A stretch of 31,785 bases of DNA from a virus, in the IMG/VR virus record IMGVR_UViG_3300045988_173362, positions 1 to 31,785 of that record; one strand, given 5' to 3'. A program made the position numbers and the translations under genes. The notes beneath the pieces were generated by a model. It did no database searches. It was not told where the DNA came from and saw only the letters and a list, made by a program, of their open reading frames with translations. The stretch's first letter is position 1, and each line of letters begins with the position of its first letter. Positions 1-31,785 of this stretch are shown here, piece by piece.

Positions 1-55
1 ACGAAAAACCCCACTGTTTAGTAGGATTTTTACATTTTTGGTGGAGATAAGCGGG
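1..55. repeat. Left copy of 55-bp terminal direct repeat (attL-like core)
   Basis: acgaaaaaccccactgtttagtaggatttttacatttttggtggagataagcggg is identical to 31731-31785. Read on the minus strand, 39-55 looks like a tRNA 3' end (CCGCT-TATCTCC-A-CCA). Positions 4-25 form a hairpin plus U-tract downstream of it. Confidence 0.8.
4..25 (-). terminator. Hairpin + U5 inside the att core (terminator of the tRNA-like 3' end)
   Basis: Minus strand reads CCTACT-aaac-AGTGGG followed by GTTTTT. It lies 14 nt downstream of the ...CTCCACCA end. Confidence 0.4.
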
Positions 56-10892: not shown

Positions 10893-11198
10893 CTATTGTT
10901 TAGACAGTGTTCCCTGCAACTCTTGCGCAAGCAGTATTGCAATCATGTCGCAGGCATCGTCAAACCAATGTTCGTTTGGGTTCTGTCTCCCGTTCCACTT
11001 CGGCGATACCCACGGCTCGTTGGTGTATGGCATATACGGTGCAACCGACTGGTCGATTTCTATCACCCATACGCCGTCACCCTTGTAATTCAATTTGACA
11101 GCATTGTTTTTTAAGTTGCCCGTATCGATAGGCACTACCGATTTGAATGCCGTCATCACGTTCTGCATGATTGCAAGTTGCCGTGTATAATCAATCAT
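10893..11198 (-). CDS. HK97 gp10-like neck / tail-completion protein
   Basis: 101 aa. The motif PIDTGNLKNNA matches the remembered (V/I)DTGNL signature of the family. RBS AAGGTGGA; the start overlaps the upstream stop. Confidence 0.5.
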   Translation of the reverse strand: MIDYTRQLAIMQNVMTAFKSVVPIDTGNLKNNAVKLNYKGDGVWVIEIDQSVAPYMPYTNEPWVSPKWNGRQNPNEHWFDDACDMIAILLAQELQGTLSKQ

Positions 11199-11553
11199 TT
11201 TTTTCCACCTTGATTATTTTGAGCCTCACACGCTTTGCCGCATATTTTACACGAGAAAGTCCAAGCGATTTCTCACCGTTCCTCGTATCAAATTCCTTGC
11301 TTATTTCCGTTATGAGCCACCACGATTCCGCAAAAAACAATTTGTCGTCTTTCGCAAATGGATAGGCATACGCGGTTTCAACCTCGCTTTCCTCTCGAGT
11401 ACTCATTAGGTTTTGGACAGGTTGCTCTCGAAGCTCACGCCAGTCGGTGTAGAATTTTACTTTGATGATTTTTCCCTGTTCCATTGCGCCGTCTTTAGGA
11501 AACCACTTCGCAACAATTAAGTCCTTTTCTTTTGGCATAAGTGCGTTTATCAT
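11191..11553 (-). CDS. Head-closure / adaptor-like small structural protein
   Basis: The start was moved to the ATG at 11553 (RBS GAGAGGA, 2 nt after the upstream stop). 120 aa, located in the neck module. Confidence 0.3.
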   Translation of the reverse strand: MINALMPKEKDLIVAKWFPKDGAMEQGKIIKVKFYTDWRELREQPVQNLMSTREESEVETAYAYPFAKDDKLFFAESWWLITEISKEFDTRNGEKSLGLSRVKYAAKRVRLKIIKVEKND

Positions 11554-11554
11554 C

Positions 11555-12022
11555 TCAATAGTCCTCTCTGTAAGCGAATTTAGGCACGGTGTAATGTCCT
11601 TGATACACAAGGCACACACCGTTTGGCAAAGTCTCCGTAAGCCTCATTGCCGTTGTGGGCGAAACCCATTTTCTGAATCCCGTTTCCACATCAACACTGT
11701 TGAAAAAGTCGCCGTTGCGCAGTTGGTAGTACACCTCATCCACAAGACAGTCCTTGATAATGTCACGGCAAGGCGGATATTTCGCAAGCAAGAACTCGAT
11801 ATAGTCTTTGTTGCGACCGTGTGCATAAATGTAGCGATATAGAAAGTCCGAGACACGCCTCAATATGCGTTGCGGAAGCGTTGACGGATTTGCATCGCCC
11901 GTCGTGTCCAAATATTCCGCCATATTCACGCCGAGAGTTTCAAGCACATATCGTTCATTCAATATGTATTGATGTTTTTTGTAGTCGTATATCATTGCAT
12001 CGTCATTAAATGGATAGTTCAT
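11555..12022 (-). CDS. Head-tail connector-like protein
   Basis: The start was moved to the ATG at 12022 (RBS AGGAG). 155 aa, the first gene after the capsid gene. Confidence 0.35.
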   Translation of the reverse strand: MNYPFNDDAMIYDYKKHQYILNERYVLETLGVNMAEYLDTTGDANPSTLPQRILRRVSDFLYRYIYAHGRNKDYIEFLLAKYPPCRDIIKDCLVDEVYYQLRNGDFFNSVDVETGFRKWVSPTTAMRLTETLPNGVCLVYQGHYTVPKFAYREDY

Positions 12023-18485: not shown

Positions 18486-18514
18486 AAAAAAAGCACACCG
18501 TTGTGATGTGCTTT
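18486..18514 (-). terminator. Strong intrinsic terminator immediately upstream of terS
   Basis: Minus strand reads AAAGCACA-tcacaacgg-TGTGCTTT followed by TTTTAT, an 8-bp perfect stem and a U7 run. Only about 25 nt separate it from the terS start, which leaves no room for a promoter. Confidence 0.7.
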
Positions 18515-18544
18515 AATTTGATTGTAATTTGCTGTAAGTTGTTA

Positions 18545-18952
18545 TTATTTGCCTATTTCGATATTAGATTGCAATCTTTTCTTTTCTTGAATCTTCGCTT
18601 TTATCACGTCAAGGTTGTCTATGCCCTTTGTGTCAATTCCGAGTTGTTTTGCCTCGTCAAAGACACGTTGAGCCTCACCGCCGTGCACGTTCGAGTAATC
18701 TCTCTTGGATTTCGCTTTTTCTTTTCTATCTGCAAAGAAGTCCGCCCAATACGGATTTTCTTTATCAAATATCTCAACTTCTTCGGGTGTCATTGCCCAC
18801 GGATAATCCCGAAACAAATTATAAATTTTCTTTTTATCGAAAGAAAACTCGTATTCTCCAATAGGGGGATGTTCTCCAATATAATCTACCCAGTAAATAC
18901 GGTCTGTGCTTTCTTCTTTACGAAAAACAGTAGTATAGTCGTTATTTTTCAT
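18545..18952 (-). CDS. Hypothetical protein (second gene of the AT-rich cassette)
   Basis: 135 aa whose start overlaps the upstream stop by 11 nt. It contains KRDYSNV, a motif shared with the upstream protein. Confidence 0.6.
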   Translation of the reverse strand: MKNNDYTTVFRKEESTDRIYWVDYIGEHPPIGEYEFSFDKKKIYNLFRDYPWAMTPEEVEIFDKENPYWADFFADRKEKAKSKRDYSNVHGGEAQRVFDEAKQLGIDTKGIDNLDVIKAKIQEKKRLQSNIEIGK

Positions 18953-23317: not shown

Positions 23318-23956
23318 CTATCGCATAAAGCGATTCACTATTATGCCGAGAATGTAGTAGCGACGGTCTTTTATTGTTTCCTTGCAAGCCATCACGGCAT
23401 TTGCTGTTTCAACAAGCATATTCCCGTCAAATCCGTGCGGCTTTGTTATGAGCCGCTCAAAATCTTCTCTACAAACCGTCAGGTCGCCAAAGTTCAAAGT
23501 TTCTATCTCGCTTCCTGCATATACAAGGGATTCAAGCACTTCATCGGTAATTTCTGAAAACCGAGGATTGTTTTTGCACATCTCGCATACGCTCGCGATT
23601 GAATCTCTATTTTTTAATATCTTTAACAAACTAATAACATTTACATTTTCATTTTCATTAGGTTTCGCTTCGGTTTCCGTTTGGTTTTGTTTCGGTTTTG
23701 TTTCGGTTTCTTCCTTTCGTGGTCTGCCACCTTTGCAACCGTTTTCATAACGTGTTCGGTTCGCTACGAGTTGAGGCTTTATGAGCGAAAATACCGCATA
23801 TTCAACGCCATCAAGTTCTACCTCAATATTCTCAAAAGCGAATTTGAAAATTGCGTCGTATATATGTGCTTGATTCTCGGCGGGAAGTGCGCTTATTGCT
23901 TCATAAAACGAGCCATAAAACACGAAACTGTTGCAAGTAAACGTTTTCCTTTCCAT
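23318..23956 (-). CDS. Putative replication initiator / replisome-organiser-like protein
   Basis: 212 aa. The N-terminus FYGSFYEAISALP...YDAIFKFAF...NGCKGGRPRK resembles N-termini of phage replication proteins from memory. A low-complexity linker overlies DNA iterons. Confidence 0.35.
   Translation of the reverse strand: MERKTFTCNSFVFYGSFYEAISALPAENQAHIYDAIFKFAFENIEVELDGVEYAVFSLIKPQLVANRTRYENGCKGGRPRKEETETKPKQNQTETEAKPNENENVNVISLLKILKNRDSIASVCEMCKNNPRFSEITDEVLESLVYAGSEIETLNFGDLTVCREDFERLITKPHGFDGNMLVETANAVMACKETIKDRRYYILGIIVNRFMR
23658..23712. repeat. Five phased 11-bp iterons (candidate origin) inside the initiator gene
   Basis: The five units are TTaGGTTTcgc, TTCGGTTTccg, TTtGGTTTtgt, TTCGGTTTtgt and TTCGGTTTctt. 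The 11-bp period is not a multiple of 3. An AT-rich tract lies at about 23608-23657. Confidence 0.5.
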
Positions 23957-24314: not shown

Positions 24315-24773
24315 TTAGATTGCCGATAATATCTCGATTATCCTTTGCGCCGTTTTGTCTTTTGTGATAAATTCAAAGCGCACTCCGTAGCGTTCCGACA
24401 TAGTCGCCATTGCCTTTTTAAGCACCGAGCCTTTCACCATTGTGAGTGGCTTTCCGCTCTTGGTTTTCGGCGAATGCCAGTTGTCCAAATCACCCTTTGG
24501 CGGCACTTCTTCGATAAGCACAATCAGTTGAATCCCGCACTTTCTCGCAAGCTCACATTCTGCTCTGAAACGCTCGTGTTGTCCGCCGCATATATTGCCC
24601 GAAATTTCGACGATGTCTTTCTTTGTGTCAATGCTCACGGTTTGGTTGTCTAACCGCGCGTAATCGCCTACAATCAACTTTGAGCGCACGCTCGGTTGGT
24701 TTATCGACTGAAAGTGTTTCTCGATGTTTTTGTGCTTTGTGGTTTGTTGCCGTGTGTCTTCAACGATTATCAT
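24315..24773 (-). CDS. ERCC4/Mus81-like nuclease (putative junction resolvase)
   Basis: 152 aa. The pattern IVEDTRQQ ... VGDYA ... SIDTKKDIVE resembles the remembered GDx(n)ERKx3D layout of ERCC4-type nucleases, in degenerate form. Confidence 0.4.
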   Translation of the reverse strand: MIIVEDTRQQTTKHKNIEKHFQSINQPSVRSKLIVGDYARLDNQTVSIDTKKDIVEISGNICGGQHERFRAECELARKCGIQLIVLIEEVPPKGDLDNWHSPKTKSGKPLTMVKGSVLKKAMATMSERYGVRFEFITKDKTAQRIIEILSAI

Positions 24774-25299
24774 TGCTTTCCTTTTGCCCCCAAAGTGATA
24801 AGAGTTCTTGCAGTTGTTCGGGCGTTCTCGTTTCTATGCCGAGTTGTTGCGCCTCTTGGACAGTTCCCTCGATGAGCCTTGACATCTCTTTCGTGTCGAG
24901 CGTGTGCGTTGGCTTGAATATGTACCAGTCGTTGCACGGCTCTTTCGTGCCTTTGCTCTCACCGATAAGCCTTGAATACTTATAGATGTCGTCGAGATTT
25001 GCGCTTGCCGGGATTCTCGCTATAAACGCGACCGTTCCGTAATCACACACAAGTTGCCGCTTTACGTCGTCAATGCTCTGATAGTCCACTTCGGCAATCT
25101 TGCTGACAAGGACGTGGAAGTATGCGTTTGCGTCAAGCGAGCGTTGTTCCCGATACTGTTTTATCTCAAGGCTCAACGGCTTTGTTCTGTCCTGCGTTTT
25201 GAGTTGCAAGACGGCGTTCTTGTCGTACGTCGTGAACGTCACTTCGTGCGCTCCAAACTCGCCCTGCAATGCTCTTGTAAATGTTGCTTTGATTTTCAT
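24760..25299 (-). CDS. NinB/Orf-like recombination mediator
   Basis: 179 aa. YREQRSLDANAYFHVLVSKIA parallels lambda NinB ERNRSLDQNRKLWACLGDVS. RBS GAGGTGA. The gene is adjacent to the annealase. Confidence 0.5.
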   Translation of the reverse strand: MKIKATFTRALQGEFGAHEVTFTTYDKNAVLQLKTQDRTKPLSLEIKQYREQRSLDANAYFHVLVSKIAEVDYQSIDDVKRQLVCDYGTVAFIARIPASANLDDIYKYSRLIGESKGTKEPCNDWYIFKPTHTLDTKEMSRLIEGTVQEAQQLGIETRTPEQLQELLSLWGQKESNDNR

Positions 25300-25307
25300 C
25301 GTTCACC

Positions 25308-26069
25308 TCAATTCCACGGAACGTCATCATCTCCGAGCGGCATTAAATCTTCCGATGTTCGCCTGTCTTCCAATATCATCTTTGCCGCCTTTACGCTACT
25401 TTCAACCTTTGAATGTTCGATGATGTATTCAAGGTTTTCGTCTTTTAGTGCGCCGTATGCCGTTCCTTTTGCCGTTTTCATCTCGTAGGCTTGCATTAGC
25501 GTCATCTCGTTATTGTTGCCGTAAGATTGCTCGTTTTTCGGCTGACGTTCGTTATTTTGTGTTTGAGAGCCTCGTTTGCCGTATGTAAATATCGGTTGTC
25601 CGTCGCCCAAAATGACGAGTTGCGTTATCTTGCCGTCTTCGTACTCGATTTCGCCGACTTCCATACGCTTGAATGTCGGTACGAGATTGCCCTTTGAGTT
25701 CTTTTCGGTGTTGCCTTTGATGTAAATAAACGGTGCCGTATAGAGTTCTCTGCCGATACCCCAGTTGAAGCACGCACGCTTGAAACTATCAGAAGCCTCG
25801 CCTTTCTCTTTCTCGGTGTTGCTTTCAACGCCGCAATCCCATTTGGTAATCCATTGCTTTTTGCTCTCGTCCCAAATCGACACGCCGCAAAACAGATTGC
25901 CTTTGACTTCCTTATGGTCTCTTTGCCAGTTTTCTTTGCCCACAGTTTCGTCAAGGACGTTTTGGTCGCACCGTGCGTCTTTGTACAAAAGCAGTGAAAA
26001 GCCTTTATCGTTGCAAGTTCCTACGCGGCAATCCAACTCGTCCGCTCTTAAAGTTCTAAATTTGTTCAT
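25308..26069 (-). CDS. Rad52/Sak-like single-strand annealing protein
   Basis: The start was moved to the ATG at 26069 (RBS GGTGAGGAAAG). The motifs ARCDQNVLDETVGKENWQRD and EKGEASDSFKRACFNWGIGRELY are typical of phage Rad52-like annealases. Confidence 0.65.
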   Translation of the reverse strand: MNKFRTLRADELDCRVGTCNDKGFSLLLYKDARCDQNVLDETVGKENWQRDHKEVKGNLFCGVSIWDESKKQWITKWDCGVESNTEKEKGEASDSFKRACFNWGIGRELYTAPFIYIKGNTEKNSKGNLVPTFKRMEVGEIEYEDGKITQLVILGDGQPIFTYGKRGSQTQNNERQPKNEQSYGNNNEMTLMQAYEMKTAKGTAYGALKDENLEYIIEHSKVESSVKAAKMILEDRRTSEDLMPLGDDDVPWN

Positions 26070-26079
26070 TTCTCTTTCC

Positions 26080-26445
26080 TCACCTATCTGCCGAGCCTGT
26101 TCTTTCATCAAGCCTCGACGTTATTTTTCCAACGCCCCACGGTTCGAGTATGCTGTCCGATTCTGCCGTGTAACGATGTACAACTCTTTTTGGCGGTTCT
26201 TTCGGGTGTTTTGCCTGTTCGGCTTCCCTTTCCGCTAACCGCATATCGTCGATTTGTTCTTCACAAAGTTTTTTATTTAACCAGTTTTCGGCTTCTTCCT
26301 TATGCCAAAAATCAGTTGTTATTTGTACCCAATCCATCAAGTGGAAACCGTTTTTCAAAAACGTATACTTTTCGACGACATACACTTTGCGAAGGAACTC
26401 GCCGCGCCAACACAAATCCTTTTCAACAATTCGATATTTGTTCAT
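26080..26445 (-). CDS. Hypothetical protein
   Basis: The start was moved to the ATG at 26445 (RBS AAAGGA, ATGA overlap with the upstream stop). 121 aa. Confidence 0.45.
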   Translation of the reverse strand: MNKYRIVEKDLCWRGEFLRKVYVVEKYTFLKNGFHLMDWVQITTDFWHKEEAENWLNKKLCEEQIDDMRLAEREAEQAKHPKEPPKRVVHRYTAESDSILEPWGVGKITSRLDERTGSADR

Positions 26446-26615
26446 TTTGCAAGTCCTTTCGTGAACGGCGCGAGTGCTTGTGCCATACTCGGATGTAAAT
26501 TGCTTTTTCTTTCTTGCTCTGCGCTCTTTTTGGCGATGACGGTCATCACCTTGCAAGTGTCGCCGTGTTCAAAAATCATCTTTGAAAGTTCGTTCATACA
26601 TTTGTCGATTCTCAT
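26442..26615 (-). CDS. Hypothetical small protein
   Basis: The start was moved to the ATG at 26615 (RBS GAGGCGGTGA, TAATG overlap with the pentapeptide gene stop). 57 aa. Confidence 0.45.
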   Translation of the reverse strand: MRIDKCMNELSKMIFEHGDTCKVMTVIAKKSAEQERKSNLHPSMAQALAPFTKGLAK

Positions 26616-27337
26616 TAGTAATTCACCGCCTCTTGTCTGTTTATAAAAAAGTGAATGCCAGTCGAACACTCGTTCCAACGGTTTTCGTCAAAGTCGTCAA
26701 CTGTGACTATTTCACCCACCTTATAGATGAACTTTGAATCTCTATCGCTTGCAACGCTCGTCTTAACGCTCGGTGTGCCGTCTATGTTTTGAATTGACAA
26801 CACTTTTGCTTTGTCGCACCGACACTTTCTGCCCGTTGCCGATACACGTTTTGCGTCGCTCAATATTTCGAGTTCCACAATCAAGCCTCGTGCTTTTTTG
26901 TAACCTATGAACGAGCCGAAGTCCGGGCAAGCGTAAGGTACAAACGGAATGTTTTTCGCACGCGACAAGTCCGCACACGACAAGTTCGCCCACGACAAGT
27001 CCGCCCACGACAAGTCCGCACGCGACAAGTTCGCACGCGACAAGTTCGCACGCGACAAGTCCGCCCCCGACAAGTCCGCACGCGACAAGTTCGCACGCGA
27101 CAAGTCCGCACGCGACAAGTCCGCACGCGACAAGTCCGCACGCGACAAGTTCGCCCACGACAAGTTCGCACACGACAAGTTCGCCCACGACAAGTCCGCA
27201 CACGACAAGTCCGCACCCGACAAGTCCGCACACGACAAGTCCGCACGCTCTGCGTCTTGTTGGTCGCTATCTTCCAACCAAAGTTTGTGTTTTCTCAAAA
27301 TCTCTTTAAGTTCTTGTTCTGTAAATGTTTTCATCAT
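26615..27337 (-). CDS. Pentapeptide-repeat protein (19 x A[D/N]LS[C/G/W/R]) with a ~114-aa C-terminal globular domain
   Basis: The repeats can be read directly in the translation. The C-terminal domain ([16 protein letters not shown] ... [14 protein letters not shown]) recalls a domain seen on other phage pentapeptide proteins. The ATG at 27334 may be the true start. Confidence 0.85.
26960..27244. repeat. 19 tandem 15-bp units encoding the pentapeptide repeats
   Basis: The plus-strand unit is CGACAAGT[C/T]CGC[A/C]C[A/C/G]. The Ala, Leu and Ser codons are identical in all copies. Confidence 0.95.
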
Positions 27338-27346
27338 ATCCCTCGC

Positions 27347-27562
27347 TCAAAATCTTGCTATCTTGTAAAATTCGCAGTAGTCCTGCGTGTGCAGTTTCCC
27401 TCGCTGGTCGATACGCGGCTTACCGCCTCGTTTCTCGATAACGTATTTGATGTCGGTGATGATACGACTTGCTTGCGATGCATTGCACCCTTGCAGTTTC
27501 TGAATATCCGCACCCGTCATAACGTCTTTGCTCATAATTTCTTCGCGTTCTGTGTACGTCAT
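27347..27562 (-). CDS. Small DNA-binding protein, excisionase-like (Tn916 Xis-type HTH?)
   Basis: 71 aa with RBS AGGAGTGA. MTGADIQKLQGCNASQASRIITDIK plus a C-terminal beta-like tail resembles Xis-type HTH proteins from memory. Confidence 0.3.
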   Translation of the reverse strand: MTYTEREEIMSKDVMTGADIQKLQGCNASQASRIITDIKYVIEKRGGKPRIDQRGKLHTQDYCEFYKIARF

Positions 27563-27565
27563 TTC

Positions 27566-27760
27566 TCACTCCTGCTCAAAACTTGCAACGAGCTTGCTTA
27601 TCGATACTCCCAACGCTTTGGCAATTCTTCCGAGTTTTGCCGTGTTCGGTCTACACTCGCCGCAACACCACGCCGATACTGCCGATTGTGAAACATCCAC
27701 AGCTCGTGCAAGTTCTTCTTGTGTGATACCTTTGTGTTTTAGAAGTTTCTTAAAAGTCAT
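27566..27760 (-). CDS. XRE-family HTH regulator
   Basis: 64 aa with RBS GAGGAGGGG. GITQEELARAVDVSQSAVSAW is a classical XRE HTH. Confidence 0.75.
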   Translation of the reverse strand: MTFKKLLKHKGITQEELARAVDVSQSAVSAWCCGECRPNTAKLGRIAKALGVSISKLVASFEQE

Positions 27761-27963
27761 AACCCCTCCTCTATTGTCAATTTGTAACCAAGTGCGGCAA
27801 GCACTATGATTGCGTTTTCAAGCGACATTTGTGCGCCGCAATAAACCCATTTTTCGATTGTCGATTGCCTCACGCCGCTGACTTTTGCAAGTTCGCGACA
27901 CGATAGTTTCGACTGCTTCAAAATGCTCAAAAAGTCATCTTTGCAAACAATTTGTTTTTCCAC
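27757..27963 (-). CDS. Cro-like XRE HTH regulator
   Basis: The GTG at 27963 lies 8 nt after AAGGAG (68 aa). The longer GTG start at 28026 has no RBS. The HTH is LSCRELAKVSGVRQSTIEKW. It is the first regulator of the lytic transcript, divergent from the repressor. Confidence 0.65.
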   Translation of the reverse strand: MEKQIVCKDDFLSILKQSKLSCRELAKVSGVRQSTIEKWVYCGAQMSLENAIIVLAALGYKLTIEEGL

Positions 27964-28022
27964 TTGATTTGCTCCTTTGTGTTGAAACCACTCGCAAAAC
28001 AAAGTTTTTCTCGCTGGACTGC

Positions 28023-28124
28023 TCACGAGGGGATAATCCCGTGATTCATAAGAAGTGCTACTACCGAAAGCACAACACCGATAATCGATAAGACGATTGC
28101 TCCAATTTTGAAAAAATCTTCCAT
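28023..28124 (-). CDS. 33-aa hydrophobic peptide, first ORF of the lytic transcript
   Basis: This ORF is below the track cut-off. It reads MEDFFKIGAIVLSIIGVVLSVVALLMNHGIIPS. AAGGAGAGG lies 8 nt upstream of the ATG. It sits directly downstream of the lytic promoter. Confidence 0.5.
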   Translation of the reverse strand: MEDFFKIGAIVLSIIGVVLSVVALLMNHGIIPS

Positions 28125-28146
28125 ATTCACTACCTCTCCTTGATTG

Positions 28147-28163
28147 TACAAGTTTTCCTTGTA
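28147..28163. promoter_or_regulatory. Operator site A (TACAAG-N5-CTTGTA)
   Basis: Inverted repeat with perfect 6-bp arms. It lies just downstream of the lytic -10 box. Confidence 0.6.
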
Positions 28164-28170
28164 TGGATAC

Positions 28171-28199
28171 ATATTATACCGATTTTACCGATATGTCAA
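28171..28199 (-). promoter_or_regulatory. Early-lytic promoter
   Basis: Minus strand reads TTGACA (28199-28194), then TATAAT at 15-nt spacing or TAATAT at 17-nt spacing. Confidence 0.6.
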
Positions 28200-28314: not shown

Positions 28315-28953
28315 ATGAATAGAATAAAAGAATTACGAAAGGCAAAAAAGCTGACACAAACTCAACTTGCCCGATTATTTAATATCTCGCAACAAACACT
28401 TTCGGGATGGGAAAACGGGTTGTTTGAACCTGACCAAAAAACGATTTTTAAGATTGCCGATTATTTCGGCGTATCCGTTGACTATCTTCTCGGGCGTGAC
28501 GCGAGCGCACACTCGTGTACAATAGACAACGCGTATGTGCCTGACGCTATCGTTCCGTTCCGAGTGATTGGCACAATCAAGGCTGGGTATGACGGCGCGG
28601 TCGAAGAATTAAGCACAGGCGACCTTATCTCCATACCGCTTGAAATGCTTTGCGGTCGTCCTGCAAGCGATTATTTCGTGCTTCAAGTGCGGGGCAACTC
28701 TATGTATCCCAAAATACTTGACGGTGACCGCGTGCTTGTTCTACGCACCGACAGCGTAGACAGCGGAACGACGGCGATTGTTCTGTACAACGGCGACGAA
28801 GCAACGATAAAAAAGGTTGTGTATTCCGTCGGCGAAAACTGGGTTGACCTTGTTCCAAACAACCCAGAATATGACACGAAGCGAATCTTTGCCAACGAAT
28901 TTGACCAGTTCCGCATACTCGGCAAGGCAGTAAAACTGATACGAGATATTTGA
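28315..28953 (+). CDS. LexA/cI-type phage repressor (XRE HTH + S24 peptidase domain)
   Basis: The start was moved to the ATG at 28315 (RBS AGGAGAG). The HTH is LTQTQLARLFNISQQTLSGWENG. The S24 signatures are GNSMYP (Ser) and ATIKKV (Lys). Confidence 0.9.
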   Translation: MNRIKELRKAKKLTQTQLARLFNISQQTLSGWENGLFEPDQKTIFKIADYFGVSVDYLLGRDASAHSCTIDNAYVPDAIVPFRVIGTIKAGYDGAVEELSTGDLISIPLEMLCGRPASDYFVLQVRGNSMYPKILDGDRVLVLRTDSVDSGTTAIVLYNGDEATIKKVVYSVGENWVDLVPNNPEYDTKRIFANEFDQFRILGKAVKLIRDI

Positions 28954-29008: not shown

Positions 29009-30532
29009 ATGGGAAAATGCACTATTTGTGGAAAGAAAGGATTATTTGTCAAAGTAAACGATAAAGGCGTTTGCAAAGACTGTGAGGCTGTTGCAAAAAG
29101 AAAGGCTACATTGGATTCGATTGAAAAGCGTTTGGCTGATAAAGAGGCTTTAATGCGTCAAGTTCAAGCCGAGGCTCTTGATAAAATTGACCGCCAAATT
29201 GATGATAAGAACAAAAAGCTCACAAGAATTAACACCGAAATTATTAACAAGACCGAAGAATTGTCAAATACTAACGATTCTTTGCAAAAGGCAATAAAGG
29301 ACTGGGAAACCGCCAGTAAAAAAGTCGCAAAAATTAAACCTTTGTATAAGAGTTTTATGAATCAGTTTGAATCCGAGGACTTTTATTACAAAGTTTGTAC
29401 AAACCCCGAAAGTGCTCGAAGAGAATTTGCGAGCAAGTTTTCTATCATAGAGGACGATGCTCTATATTCCCCGTCCGTCATATTGCATACACACAGTATG
29501 GATATGAAAGATCTGAGAAAAAAACTTAAAGACAACCGAGCAGCAATTGACGCCGTTACGCAAAAATATCTTGCGAAATACACCACAAAAGCAAATAAAG
29601 CCATTTACATTTTGATGACTATGGCATTAGAGGCGGAACTTCAAAACATTATTTTCTCAATGAACGGGAACAAACTTGACGTGTCCTTAAAATCCGTTGA
29701 CAATGTAATTCAAAAGTATTTGAAAATCGCCTCGGACGGAAACCAAACGATTGTAAACACCCTTGTTCACTTCATCGGCGAAATTGAAACGCTATATAAA
29801 AATGTCGTACAAATCGAATTTGAGTATTACACAATCCGTGAACGTGTCAAAGAAGAACAACGAGCATTGCGTGAACAAATGCGTCAAGAAGCGGAAGAAC
29901 GTAAATTGCTTGAACAACAACGTAAAAAGGTTGAGGAAGAAGAACGCAAGTATCGCAATGAAATCCTTAATCTTCAAGAGCAGCTGCAAGATGCAGACGA
30001 AGAAAAGCAGACTCAAATCAACGACCGCATCAACGAAATCAATTCACAACTTGAACAAGTTGAGAGCAAGAAAGAAGATATTATCAATCTTCAAAATGGT
30101 AAAGCAGGATATGTATATATAATCAGCAATCTTGGCTCTTTTGGTGATAATGTTTTCAAAATCGGTATGACGAGAAGATTGAATCCCCAAGAACGCGTAG
30201 ATGAACTTGGAAGTGCATCTGTTCCTTTCCCGTTTGATATTCACGGTATGATATTCTCTGATGATGCTGTGTCATTAGAAAACAAGATGCATAAGATACT
30301 AACAAATCAACGCGTAAACAAAGTAAATTTCAGAAAAGAATTCTTTGCCATATCGATAGACGAACTGCAAAATCTCGTTCAAGAACTCGCACCAACAGCC
30401 GAGTTTAAGACGACTATGCTTGCTGAACAGTATAGGCAATCTCTGTCTATCGGAAATGGCGAAATGAGTAGTTTGAGCGATGAAATTAACCTTGATGAAG
30501 TAGCATCTGACACAGAAGATATTGACGATTAA
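29009..30532 (+). CDS. Zinc-ribbon / coiled-coil / DUF4041-like / T5orf172 (GIY-YIG-superfamily) protein
   Basis: 507 aa with RBS GGAGG. The N-terminus carries CxxC-x14-CxxC. A long heptad-rich middle follows. The C-terminus GYVYIISNLGSFGDNVFKIGMTRRLNPQERVDELGSASVPFPFDIH matches the remembered T5orf172/MUG113 signature. Confidence 0.75.
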   Translation: MGKCTICGKKGLFVKVNDKGVCKDCEAVAKRKATLDSIEKRLADKEALMRQVQAEALDKIDRQIDDKNKKLTRINTEIINKTEELSNTNDSLQKAIKDWETASKKVAKIKPLYKSFMNQFESEDFYYKVCTNPESARREFASKFSIIEDDALYSPSVILHTHSMDMKDLRKKLKDNRAAIDAVTQKYLAKYTTKANKAIYILMTMALEAELQNIIFSMNGNKLDVSLKSVDNVIQKYLKIASDGNQTIVNTLVHFIGEIETLYKNVVQIEFEYYTIRERVKEEQRALREQMRQEAEERKLLEQQRKKVEEEERKYRNEILNLQEQLQDADEEKQTQINDRINEINSQLEQVESKKEDIINLQNGKAGYVYIISNLGSFGDNVFKIGMTRRLNPQERVDELGSASVPFPFDIHGMIFSDDAVSLENKMHKILTNQRVNKVNFRKEFFAISIDELQNLVQELAPTAEFKTTMLAEQYRQSLSIGNGEMSSLSDEINLDEVASDTEDIDD

Positions 30533-31680: not shown

Positions 31681-31710
31681 AATTCCACGCAATTCCACGC
31701 AATTCCACGC
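31681..31710. repeat. Three perfect tandem 10-bp repeats (AATTCCACGC), candidate integrase arm-type sites
   Basis: Read directly from the sequence. The repeats lie 36 nt after the int stop and 20 nt before the att core. Confidence 0.8.
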
Positions 31711-31730
31711 ATAAAAATACTGTATAAAAA

Positions 31731-31785
31731 ACGAAAAACCCCACTGTTTAGTAGGATTTTTACATTTTTGGTGGAGATAAGCGGG
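31731..31785. repeat. Right copy of 55-bp terminal direct repeat (attR-like core)
   Basis: Identical to 1-55. Confidence 0.8.

Follow-up and report, generated by a model that had tools for sequence, protein, structure and literature searches.

The window analyzed here is the whole of IMG/VR virus record IMGVR_UViG_3300045988_173362, a stretch of 31,785 nt that carries on its minus strand a gene for a pentapeptide-repeat protein (PRP), whose central part is encoded by a tandem array of near-identical 15-bp units and whose C-terminal part is a DUF5758 domain. The product is 240 amino acids (aa) long when counted from an ATGATG start (239 aa if the second Met is used) and consists of an N-terminal cap helix, then a pentapeptide-repeat solenoid, then a linker and DUF5758, encoded as follows:

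26615..27337, minus strand: complete PRP and DUF5758 gene (list of open reading frames, ORFs, with translation; Pfam), stop codon at 26615–26617, with an identical protein called in the source record
27245..27337, minus strand: N-terminal cap, aa 1–31, with a predicted helix at aa 6–21 (AlphaFold2 model, alignment of relatives)
26960..27244, minus strand: 19 in-frame 15-bp units GCG-[G/A]AC-TTG-TCG-[C/T/G]G[T/G], encoding A[D/N]LS[R/C/W/G], aa 32–126 (unit table, Tandem Repeats Finder, structural model, Foldseek)
26618..26959, minus strand: linker and beta-rich DUF5758, aa 127–240, isoelectric point (pI) 8.4 (Pfam, domain model, conservation)

With its 19 uninterrupted A(D/N)LXX units, the protein scored above the Pfam gathering threshold for PF00805 (E 2.7e-31, 107.1 bits vs. 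a cut-off of 20.2), and PF19062 (DUF5758) matched aa 135–237 over the whole domain (profile positions 3–105 of 105, E 4.3e-37, 126.7 bits vs. a cut-off of 26.9). Its PHROG matches (7713, 9562, and 923) all belong to the unknown-function category. A full-length AlphaFold2 model built with 56 homologues reached a predicted local distance difference test (pLDDT) score of 91.5, with 95–98 over the array, and placed the cap helix at aa 6–21, then a solenoid of regular coils, a less confidently modeled linker (about aa 127–140), and a beta-rich C-terminal domain with a short terminal helix. According to this model, the array is a pentapeptide-repeat beta-helix of the right-handed quadrilateral type with about 4.75 coils, and Foldseek superposed it on solved Rfr-type and designed solenoids with a root-mean-square deviation of 0.4–0.9 Å over 94–98 columns. 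In the cap motif HKLWL, H16 and W19 were invariant among the aligned relatives.

A first-pass annotation of this DNA, made from its letters alone, had described 19 uninterrupted A[D/N]LS[C/G/W/R] units at aa 32–126 (26960–27244) with identical Ala, Leu, and Ser codons, and splitting the array in phase bore this out exactly, GCG, TTG, and TCG each being found in 19 of 19 units. At the codon frequencies of this phage (GCG 36%, TTG 30%, TCG 30%), such uniformity at all 57 codons would be expected by chance at a probability of ~10^-28.5. Codon 2 was GAC in 12 units and AAC in seven; codon 5 was CGT in nine, TGT in four, TGG in four, and GGT and GGG in one each, always with G as its middle base. 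The unit table thus agrees with the annotation that variation within the window array falls only at codons 2 and 5 around this fixed G. That all of this variation is non-synonymous, as the annotation also had it, holds for nearly all of it, the exception being GGT (unit 2) and GGG (unit 12), which both encode Gly. There are eight distinct 15-mers among the 19 units, and Tandem Repeats Finder reported a period of 15, 19.5 copies, and 91% matches (score 430). The translation likewise reproduced the 114-aa C-terminal domain with the terminal residues given for it.

An exact 55-bp direct repeat at the contig ends (window positions 1–55 and 31731–31785) suggests a complete, circular assembly of the window, about 31,730 bp long and built with k=55. 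Because the longest exact repeat within the array is 44 bp, shorter than this k, the assembled path through the array is self-consistent; 19 units are nevertheless best taken as a likely minimum, since a longer true array may have collapsed in assembly. A second contig, also of 31785 bp, encodes an identical protein, with the gene near one end; it was rejected as an independent confirmation of the 19 units, being in all probability the window record in rotated form. Long ORFs of 113–156 aa also cross the array in alternative frames or antisense (26763–27233 and 26905–27246 on the minus strand, 26949–27368 on the plus strand; e.g., RTCRV... or DKSAH... repeats); these are by-products of a stop-free repeat and not genes.

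For comparison across relatives, 120 close homologues were used at the protein level and the DNA of 113 related loci was recovered. The array flanks were nearly constant among the 120 homologues (including the motif AKNIPF[IV]PYA), unit number ranged from 3 to 30, and protein lengths among the closest relatives stepped by 5 aa. Arrays in many lineages were homogenized, each on its own codons, and 19 unit types with their own fixed Ala and Leu codons were distinguished, in agreement with the recent amplification or concerted evolution that had been proposed for the window array. Three examples are:

GCT-[AG]AC-CTT-TCG-[GCT]GG, 16 units
GCC-[GAT]AC-CTG-[AT]CC-[GAT]GG, 26 units
GCA-[GAT]AC-CTC-[CG]GT-G[GA]C, 23 units

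Within-array heterozygosity over the 19 unit types was distributed along the 15-nt unit as follows:

nt 1–3, 5–9, 12, and 15: about 0
nt 4: 0.43
nt 10: 0.40
nt 11: 0.12
nt 13: 0.26
nt 14: 0.23

Array variation in the 19 lineages was thus almost confined to the first and second bases of codons 2, 4, and 5. Among distinct variants, five were synonymous and 93 non-synonymous, vs. 28% synonymous expected (p=1e-8). Positions 2, 4, and 5 of the pentapeptide point outward in the known PRP fold, and the proposal that change is concentrated at outward-facing residues extends in this sense from the window to the other lineages.

Comparisons between closely related phages gave the rate and mode of change:

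window vs. L119: 96.6% identity, over 1.5 kb downstream of the array; 19 vs. 19 units
L064 vs. L002: 99.9% identity over 11 kb outside the array; 23 vs. 9 units
L064 vs. L043: 99.9% identity outside the array; 23 vs. 3 units
L037 vs. L001: 99.6% identity over 7.5 kb outside the array; 21 vs. 16 units, with junctions unique to each

Between the window and L119, 14 of the 19 units differ at the variable bases, with no difference in 228 fixed bases, and the C-terminal domain shows 8–13 synonymous differences from close relatives. Array length was expected to vary and appears to do so in near-identical phages (23, 9, and 3 units in one group, 21 and 16 in another), although part of this variation may be short-read assembly collapse. 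Simple collapse fails for L037 and L001, because each has unit junctions absent from the other, and it cannot create the differing unit repertoires seen among relatives (W/R-rich vs. C/G/Y-rich). According to a published comparison, the Salmonella phages L and ST64T, which are >99.9% identical, likewise differ by one pentapeptide repeat (a 15-bp deletion) in orf232, a PRP gene of the early left operon. The first-pass term "contingency-like" is apt insofar as length and sequence vary in frame; it fails as far as an on/off switch is meant, because the 15-bp unit always keeps the frame and copy-number change cannot turn the gene on or off.

The array is thus under concerted evolution via in-frame slippage or unequal recombination. 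Turnover of its presumably exposed residues (positions 2, 4, and 5) and of its unit number far outpaces that of the surrounding genome, and within each array the buried and synonymous positions remain uniform. Because synonymous sites are identical beside variable exposed residues, we infer selection on the surface in addition to concerted evolution, the non-synonymous excess reflecting diversifying or balancing selection on the solenoid.

DUF5758 is the conserved part of the protein, with C137, R164, C172, R173, C174, Y205, G208, R220, C224, G227, I228, H229, F230, and F231 as conserved residues. We rejected a universal four-Cys zinc site in this domain, as C137 and C174 are absent from the mycobacteriophage homologues and only C172, C224, and H229 occur generally; such a site is possibly a clade-level feature at most. 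Modeled alone, the domain had a pLDDT of 89.8 and a predicted template-modeling (pTM) score of 0.83. A Foldseek search of this model against the PDB returned no significant neighbor (best E 1.5), and a profile search of PDB sequences with the PRP protein matched only in the PRP part and nowhere in DUF5758. Among the predicted viral structures of BFVD, the C-domain model matched 37 proteins at E<1e-3 with TM-scores of 0.7–0.8, most of them giant-virus proteins in which this fold stands behind MORN, HEAT, RING, or pentapeptide modules. Four separate matches in the same search came from Acidovorax phage ACP17.

The C-domain family comprises 4167 clusters at 50% identity, and in the best 150 hits listed DUF5758 lay at or near the C-terminus with N-terminal regions of variable length ahead of it. 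The PRP and DUF5758 architecture is already annotated ("pentapeptide repeat protein") in about 150 cultured mycobacteriophages. The combination is thus abundant, yet its conserved domain is one without a solved structural relative. Searches of the literature turned up no work on the function of DUF5758 or of PRP-DUF5758 proteins in phages, and no account of homogenized hypervariable arrays; what is new here is the evolutionary pattern of the array, not the family or the architecture.

The window phage is a complete temperate phage with terminase, SPP1-type portal, minor capsid protein, integrase, and S24 repressor, and with a 1187-aa ORF that has no Pfam match and is possibly the tape-measure protein. 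Related prophages sit in genomes of Christensenella and other gut Clostridia assembled from metagenomes, and megablast found no DNA-level relatives among cultured phages. The surroundings of the PRP gene are as follows:

28315..28953, plus strand: divergent repressor with helix-turn-helix (HTH) and peptidase S24 domains (cI/LexA-type), 212 aa in the source record (Pfam); immunity switch adjoining the early operon
28171..28199, minus strand: promoter-like site TTGACA-17-TAATAT, 10 of 12 by consensus match only, heading the leftward early operon and facing away from the repressor
27347..28172, minus strand: four small ORFs upstream of the PRP gene in the same operon, of 33–49 aa, 68–89 aa (HTH), 64 aa (Cro/XRE-type HTH), and 71 aa (ORFs, Pfam HTH_3, source-record calls)
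26442..26615, minus strand: 57-aa ORF downstream of the PRP gene, its ATG overlapping the PRP stop codon as TAATG (sequence, gene calls in relatives)

In the source record, four called genes of 33, 68, 64 (Cro/XRE-type HTH), and 71 aa precede the PRP gene, which makes it, as had been proposed, the fifth called gene of a leftward operon read from the promoter-like site beside the S24 repressor. No minus-strand terminator-like site was found from the promoter-like site down to 23800. We infer early expression from this fifth place and from the similar placement of two other phage PRP genes, mycobacteriophage 244 gp59 and ST64T orf-232. The overlap of its ATG with the PRP stop codon suggests that the 57-aa ORF is translationally coupled to the PRP gene; by neighbor clustering, this ORF is conserved only in the close phage lineage.

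Two small ORFs follow the PRP gene, and after them come a weak Rad52/Rad22-like match (25308–26111, minus strand, E 1e-3) and a NinB-like match (24760–25299, minus strand). That a phage single-strand annealing protein encoded near the array promotes exchange between its short repeats is speculative. Between the repressor and the integrase, a 507-aa T5orf172/MUG113-domain protein (29009–30532, plus strand) matches the PADLOC model of the anti-phage system PD-Lambda-1 over its full length (E 2.4e-84). The same slot holds an Abi_2 gene in L119 and no such cargo gene in L120, and it looks like a hotspot for prophage defense cargo. Other short tandem repeats of the window, which could be iterons or attachment-site-related, comprise 4.5 copies of an 11-bp unit (GGTTTCGTTTC) at 23661–23710 just upstream of a DUF6291 gene, 2.6 copies of a 21-bp unit at 18500–18552, and a perfect repeat of 3.1 copies of a 10-bp unit at 31681–31711, after the integrase gene near the contig end.

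Our tentative interpretation, to which we give slightly less than an even chance, is that the protein is an early-expressed adaptor whose solenoid surface evolves fast, under concerted evolution and diversifying selection, in a phage–host conflict, and that it is not a Qnr/MfpA-type mimic. The protein combines a cap helix, a solenoid, a flexible linker, and DUF5758, which is basic, conserved, and contains Cys and His. Slippage in frame or unequal exchange among the 15-bp units reshapes the residues and the length of the solenoid, and selection would favor varied exposed residues on its surface. DUF5758 would supply a constant activity or anchor and the solenoid a fast-changing interaction surface. 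Such an adaptor would act in early lytic growth, with its solenoid engaged in host takeover, counter-defense, or escape from a host sensor; an anti-defense role is possible for this protein. Concerted evolution and exposed-residue variation in phages of gut Clostridia mark the solenoid as a likely arms-race interface. A more general proposal, which we consider doubtful, makes PRP-DUF5758 a widespread diversity-generating module of phages that works without reverse transcriptase. Recombination or slippage would reshuffle a small alphabet at positions 2, 4, and 5, together with unit number, on an otherwise invariant solenoid; the resulting combinatorial surface variants would be selected in phage–host conflicts, akin to transcription activator-like (TAL) effector or variable-lymphocyte-receptor repeats, with DUF5758 as the constant effector.

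Several observations weigh against the adaptor interpretation. No experiment on the function of the family was found in the literature. The lineages in the selection test are not fully independent. Short alleles may be assembly shortcuts, so that part of the unit-number variation would be collapse, and of the L064 array L043 retains the first unit and the final two. The variable residues showed no excess identity at lag 4 or lag 8, i.e., no face periodicity, which gives a face-specific binding surface no support; unit number modulo 4 was uniform (p=0.39), with no register constraint and no whole-coil preference, and a molecular ruler or fixed register is likewise unsupported. The absence of both is odd for a specific, geometrically defined binding surface. 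In cluster E mycobacteriophages the homologous arrays are degenerate and do not vary in length (the protein has 282 aa in all of three phages compared); the basic function of the family therefore does not depend on rapid change of the array. Across 93 loci no conserved partner gene was found beyond the close phage lineage, and neither the full PRP protein nor its C-domain had a match in PADLOC-DB 2.0.

The first-pass annotation had favored a different function, in which the solenoid is a mimic of B-DNA like Qnr and MfpA and binds and blocks host gyrase or DNA-sensing restriction or defense proteins. This now appears very unlikely. The structure prediction that it had called for gave a PRP solenoid, but the match to Qnr and MfpA was weak, and a count of charges put the array at a net −3. 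Qnr, MfpA, and AlbG do share the fold class (Foldseek E 3e-4 to 1e-2), but the best structural neighbors are cyanobacterial and designed PRPs, and the NCBIfam models for Qnr (NF033086, 33.5 bits vs. a cut-off of 240) and MfpA (NF000349, 17.2 vs. 360) scored far below threshold. The window array is mildly acidic (pI 4.5) and some relatives' arrays are strongly so, down to −24; however, by charge count the median of the 120 relatives is −3, and because their net charge spans −24 to +4, with some arrays positive, an acidic surface is not conserved. The model has no Qnr-type loops, and its solenoid is followed by a linker and beta-rich domain, not a dimerization helix. At the PRP coil rise of 4.8 Å, about 4.75 coils amount to ~23 Å, compared with ~100 Å for the MfpA dimer. 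Unit number ranges over 3–30 without register constraint, and what the family conserves is DUF5758 and not the solenoid. Positional analogues in P22-like phages do adjoin the anti-host genes ral and abc, which would suit a mimic aimed at host proteins. Recognizing that the evidence does not back the DNA-mimic label should keep such proteins from being mis-annotated as gyrase inhibitors or quinolone-resistance proteins. A phage-encoded exclusion or defense sensor, or a decoy, is also unlikely, if somewhat less so; here the repeat surface would recognize proteins of competing phages, as NLR-like sensors do, and DUF5758 would be the effector. The selection signature fits this model equally, diversifying selection on repeat domains being typical of immune sensors, and pentapeptide repeats are present in some defense proteins (e.g., the Hailong-like system). 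The window phage does carry defense cargo in PD-Lambda-1, but the PRP gene follows Cro-type regulators in the lytic early operon, outside the slot between repressor and integrase whose cargo is expressed in lysogeny; PADLOC gave no match for the PRP protein, and neither Pfam nor Foldseek against the PDB recognized a toxic-effector-like domain.

Other explanations deny the array a function as a varied protein surface. It could be a largely neutral, unstable spacer, with length differences that are mostly assembly artifacts, relaxed constraint at exposed sites, and DUF5758 as the only functional part. With 285 bp, the array exceeds typical short-read lengths in what was apparently a k=55 assembly, the L043 and L002 arrays resemble shortcut paths through that of L064, and the lack of face periodicity and register constraint would be expected of a spacer, as would the working of cluster-E homologues with degenerate, fixed arrays. 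Yet synonymous sites within arrays are 20–40 times less variable than exposed non-synonymous sites, and relaxed constraint alone does not explain this, as it would leave them at least as variable. Assembly artifacts do not account for L001 unit junctions that are missing from L037 despite 99.6% identical flanks, nor for unit repertoires that differ beyond what collapse makes, and the Sanger-era isolate pair L and ST64T shows a real 15-bp indel. We therefore regard the spacer explanation as improbable, although less so than a sensor or decoy. Finally, the 15-bp repeats might act as DNA, i.e., as origin iterons or protein-binding sites within the gene, or be the target of a diversity-generating retroelement, which we consider extremely unlikely. 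A regular tandem array near recombination and replication genes could suggest the former, but different lineages use different codons for a shared A[D/N]LXX pattern, so selection acts at the protein level, and iterons or another DNA-level element were rejected. The 15-bp period is also not in helical phase. With hypervariable sites set in an unchanging scaffold, the array has a superficial likeness to the variable region of a diversity-generating retroelement, but the circular genome holds no second copy of the array as template repeat, no reverse transcriptase was found in the ten largest ORFs upstream of 24 kb and the ten proteins around the array (many smaller ORFs remaining unscanned), and the second A of AAC never varies, unlike in adenine-directed mutagenesis. 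A retroelement was rejected on these three grounds.

Among known proteins, the nearest in architecture are the PRPs of cluster E mycobacteriophages (Kostyavirus), e.g., 244 gp59, which share PF00805 and DUF5758 (48% identity in the C-domain) and are annotated without a function. Placement is also alike, 244 gp59 being the third gene of an operon divergent from the repressor. They differ in having degenerate, mixed-codon arrays and a longer N-terminal region, and in lacking C137 and C174. Orf-232 of the P22-like Salmonella phages ST64T and L (11086–11784 in ST64T, locus L114, minus strand) is a PRP whose gene sits in the PL operon with ral on one side and gene 17 on the other. It has a similar N-terminal cap helix ("LSKILEEHKVWI") and 14.7 near-identical 15-bp units at 89%, but its C-terminal domain is unrelated, with no DUF5758 match and no tblastn match to the C-domain. 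This likeness suggests a wider class of phage early genes composed of a cap helix, a homogenized PRP array, and a variable C-domain.

Qnr, MfpA, AlbG, and McbG share the right-handed quadrilateral beta-helix of A(D/N)LXX repeats, whereas the window protein has a much shorter solenoid, a near-neutral, variable charge, and a C-terminal DUF5758. The closest solved structures and sequences are cyanobacterial Rfr-type PRPs (Np275/Np276, Rfr32, and Alr5209) and designed beta1 solenoids (Foldseek E ~1e-8, profile E 1e-58), which have the same regular, uninterrupted repeats but are cellular or synthetic and come without DUF5758 or a phage context. The type III effectors NleL/SopA and PipB2 likewise use a pentapeptide solenoid as a module beside a separate functional domain; in their case this partner is a HECT-like E3 ligase or a region that binds kinesin rather than DUF5758, and their arrays are not homogenized. 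TAL-effector repeats also combine near-identical nucleotide units with variation at a few exposed residues and in copy number. This is an analogy only, as the TAL repeat is a 34-aa helical unit with another target logic, and neither a code nor a positional pattern was detected in the window array. Giant-virus DUF5758-like proteins (Klosneuvirinae, Mimivirus) resemble the window protein in the fold of the C-domain (TM-score 0.7–0.8, E down to 1e-8) and in its fusion to repeats, but differ in having mostly MORN, HEAT, or RING partners, eukaryotic hosts, and 14–37% sequence identity. These fusions suggest that a "repeat scaffold + DUF5758" design is common to viruses of bacteria and of eukaryotes.

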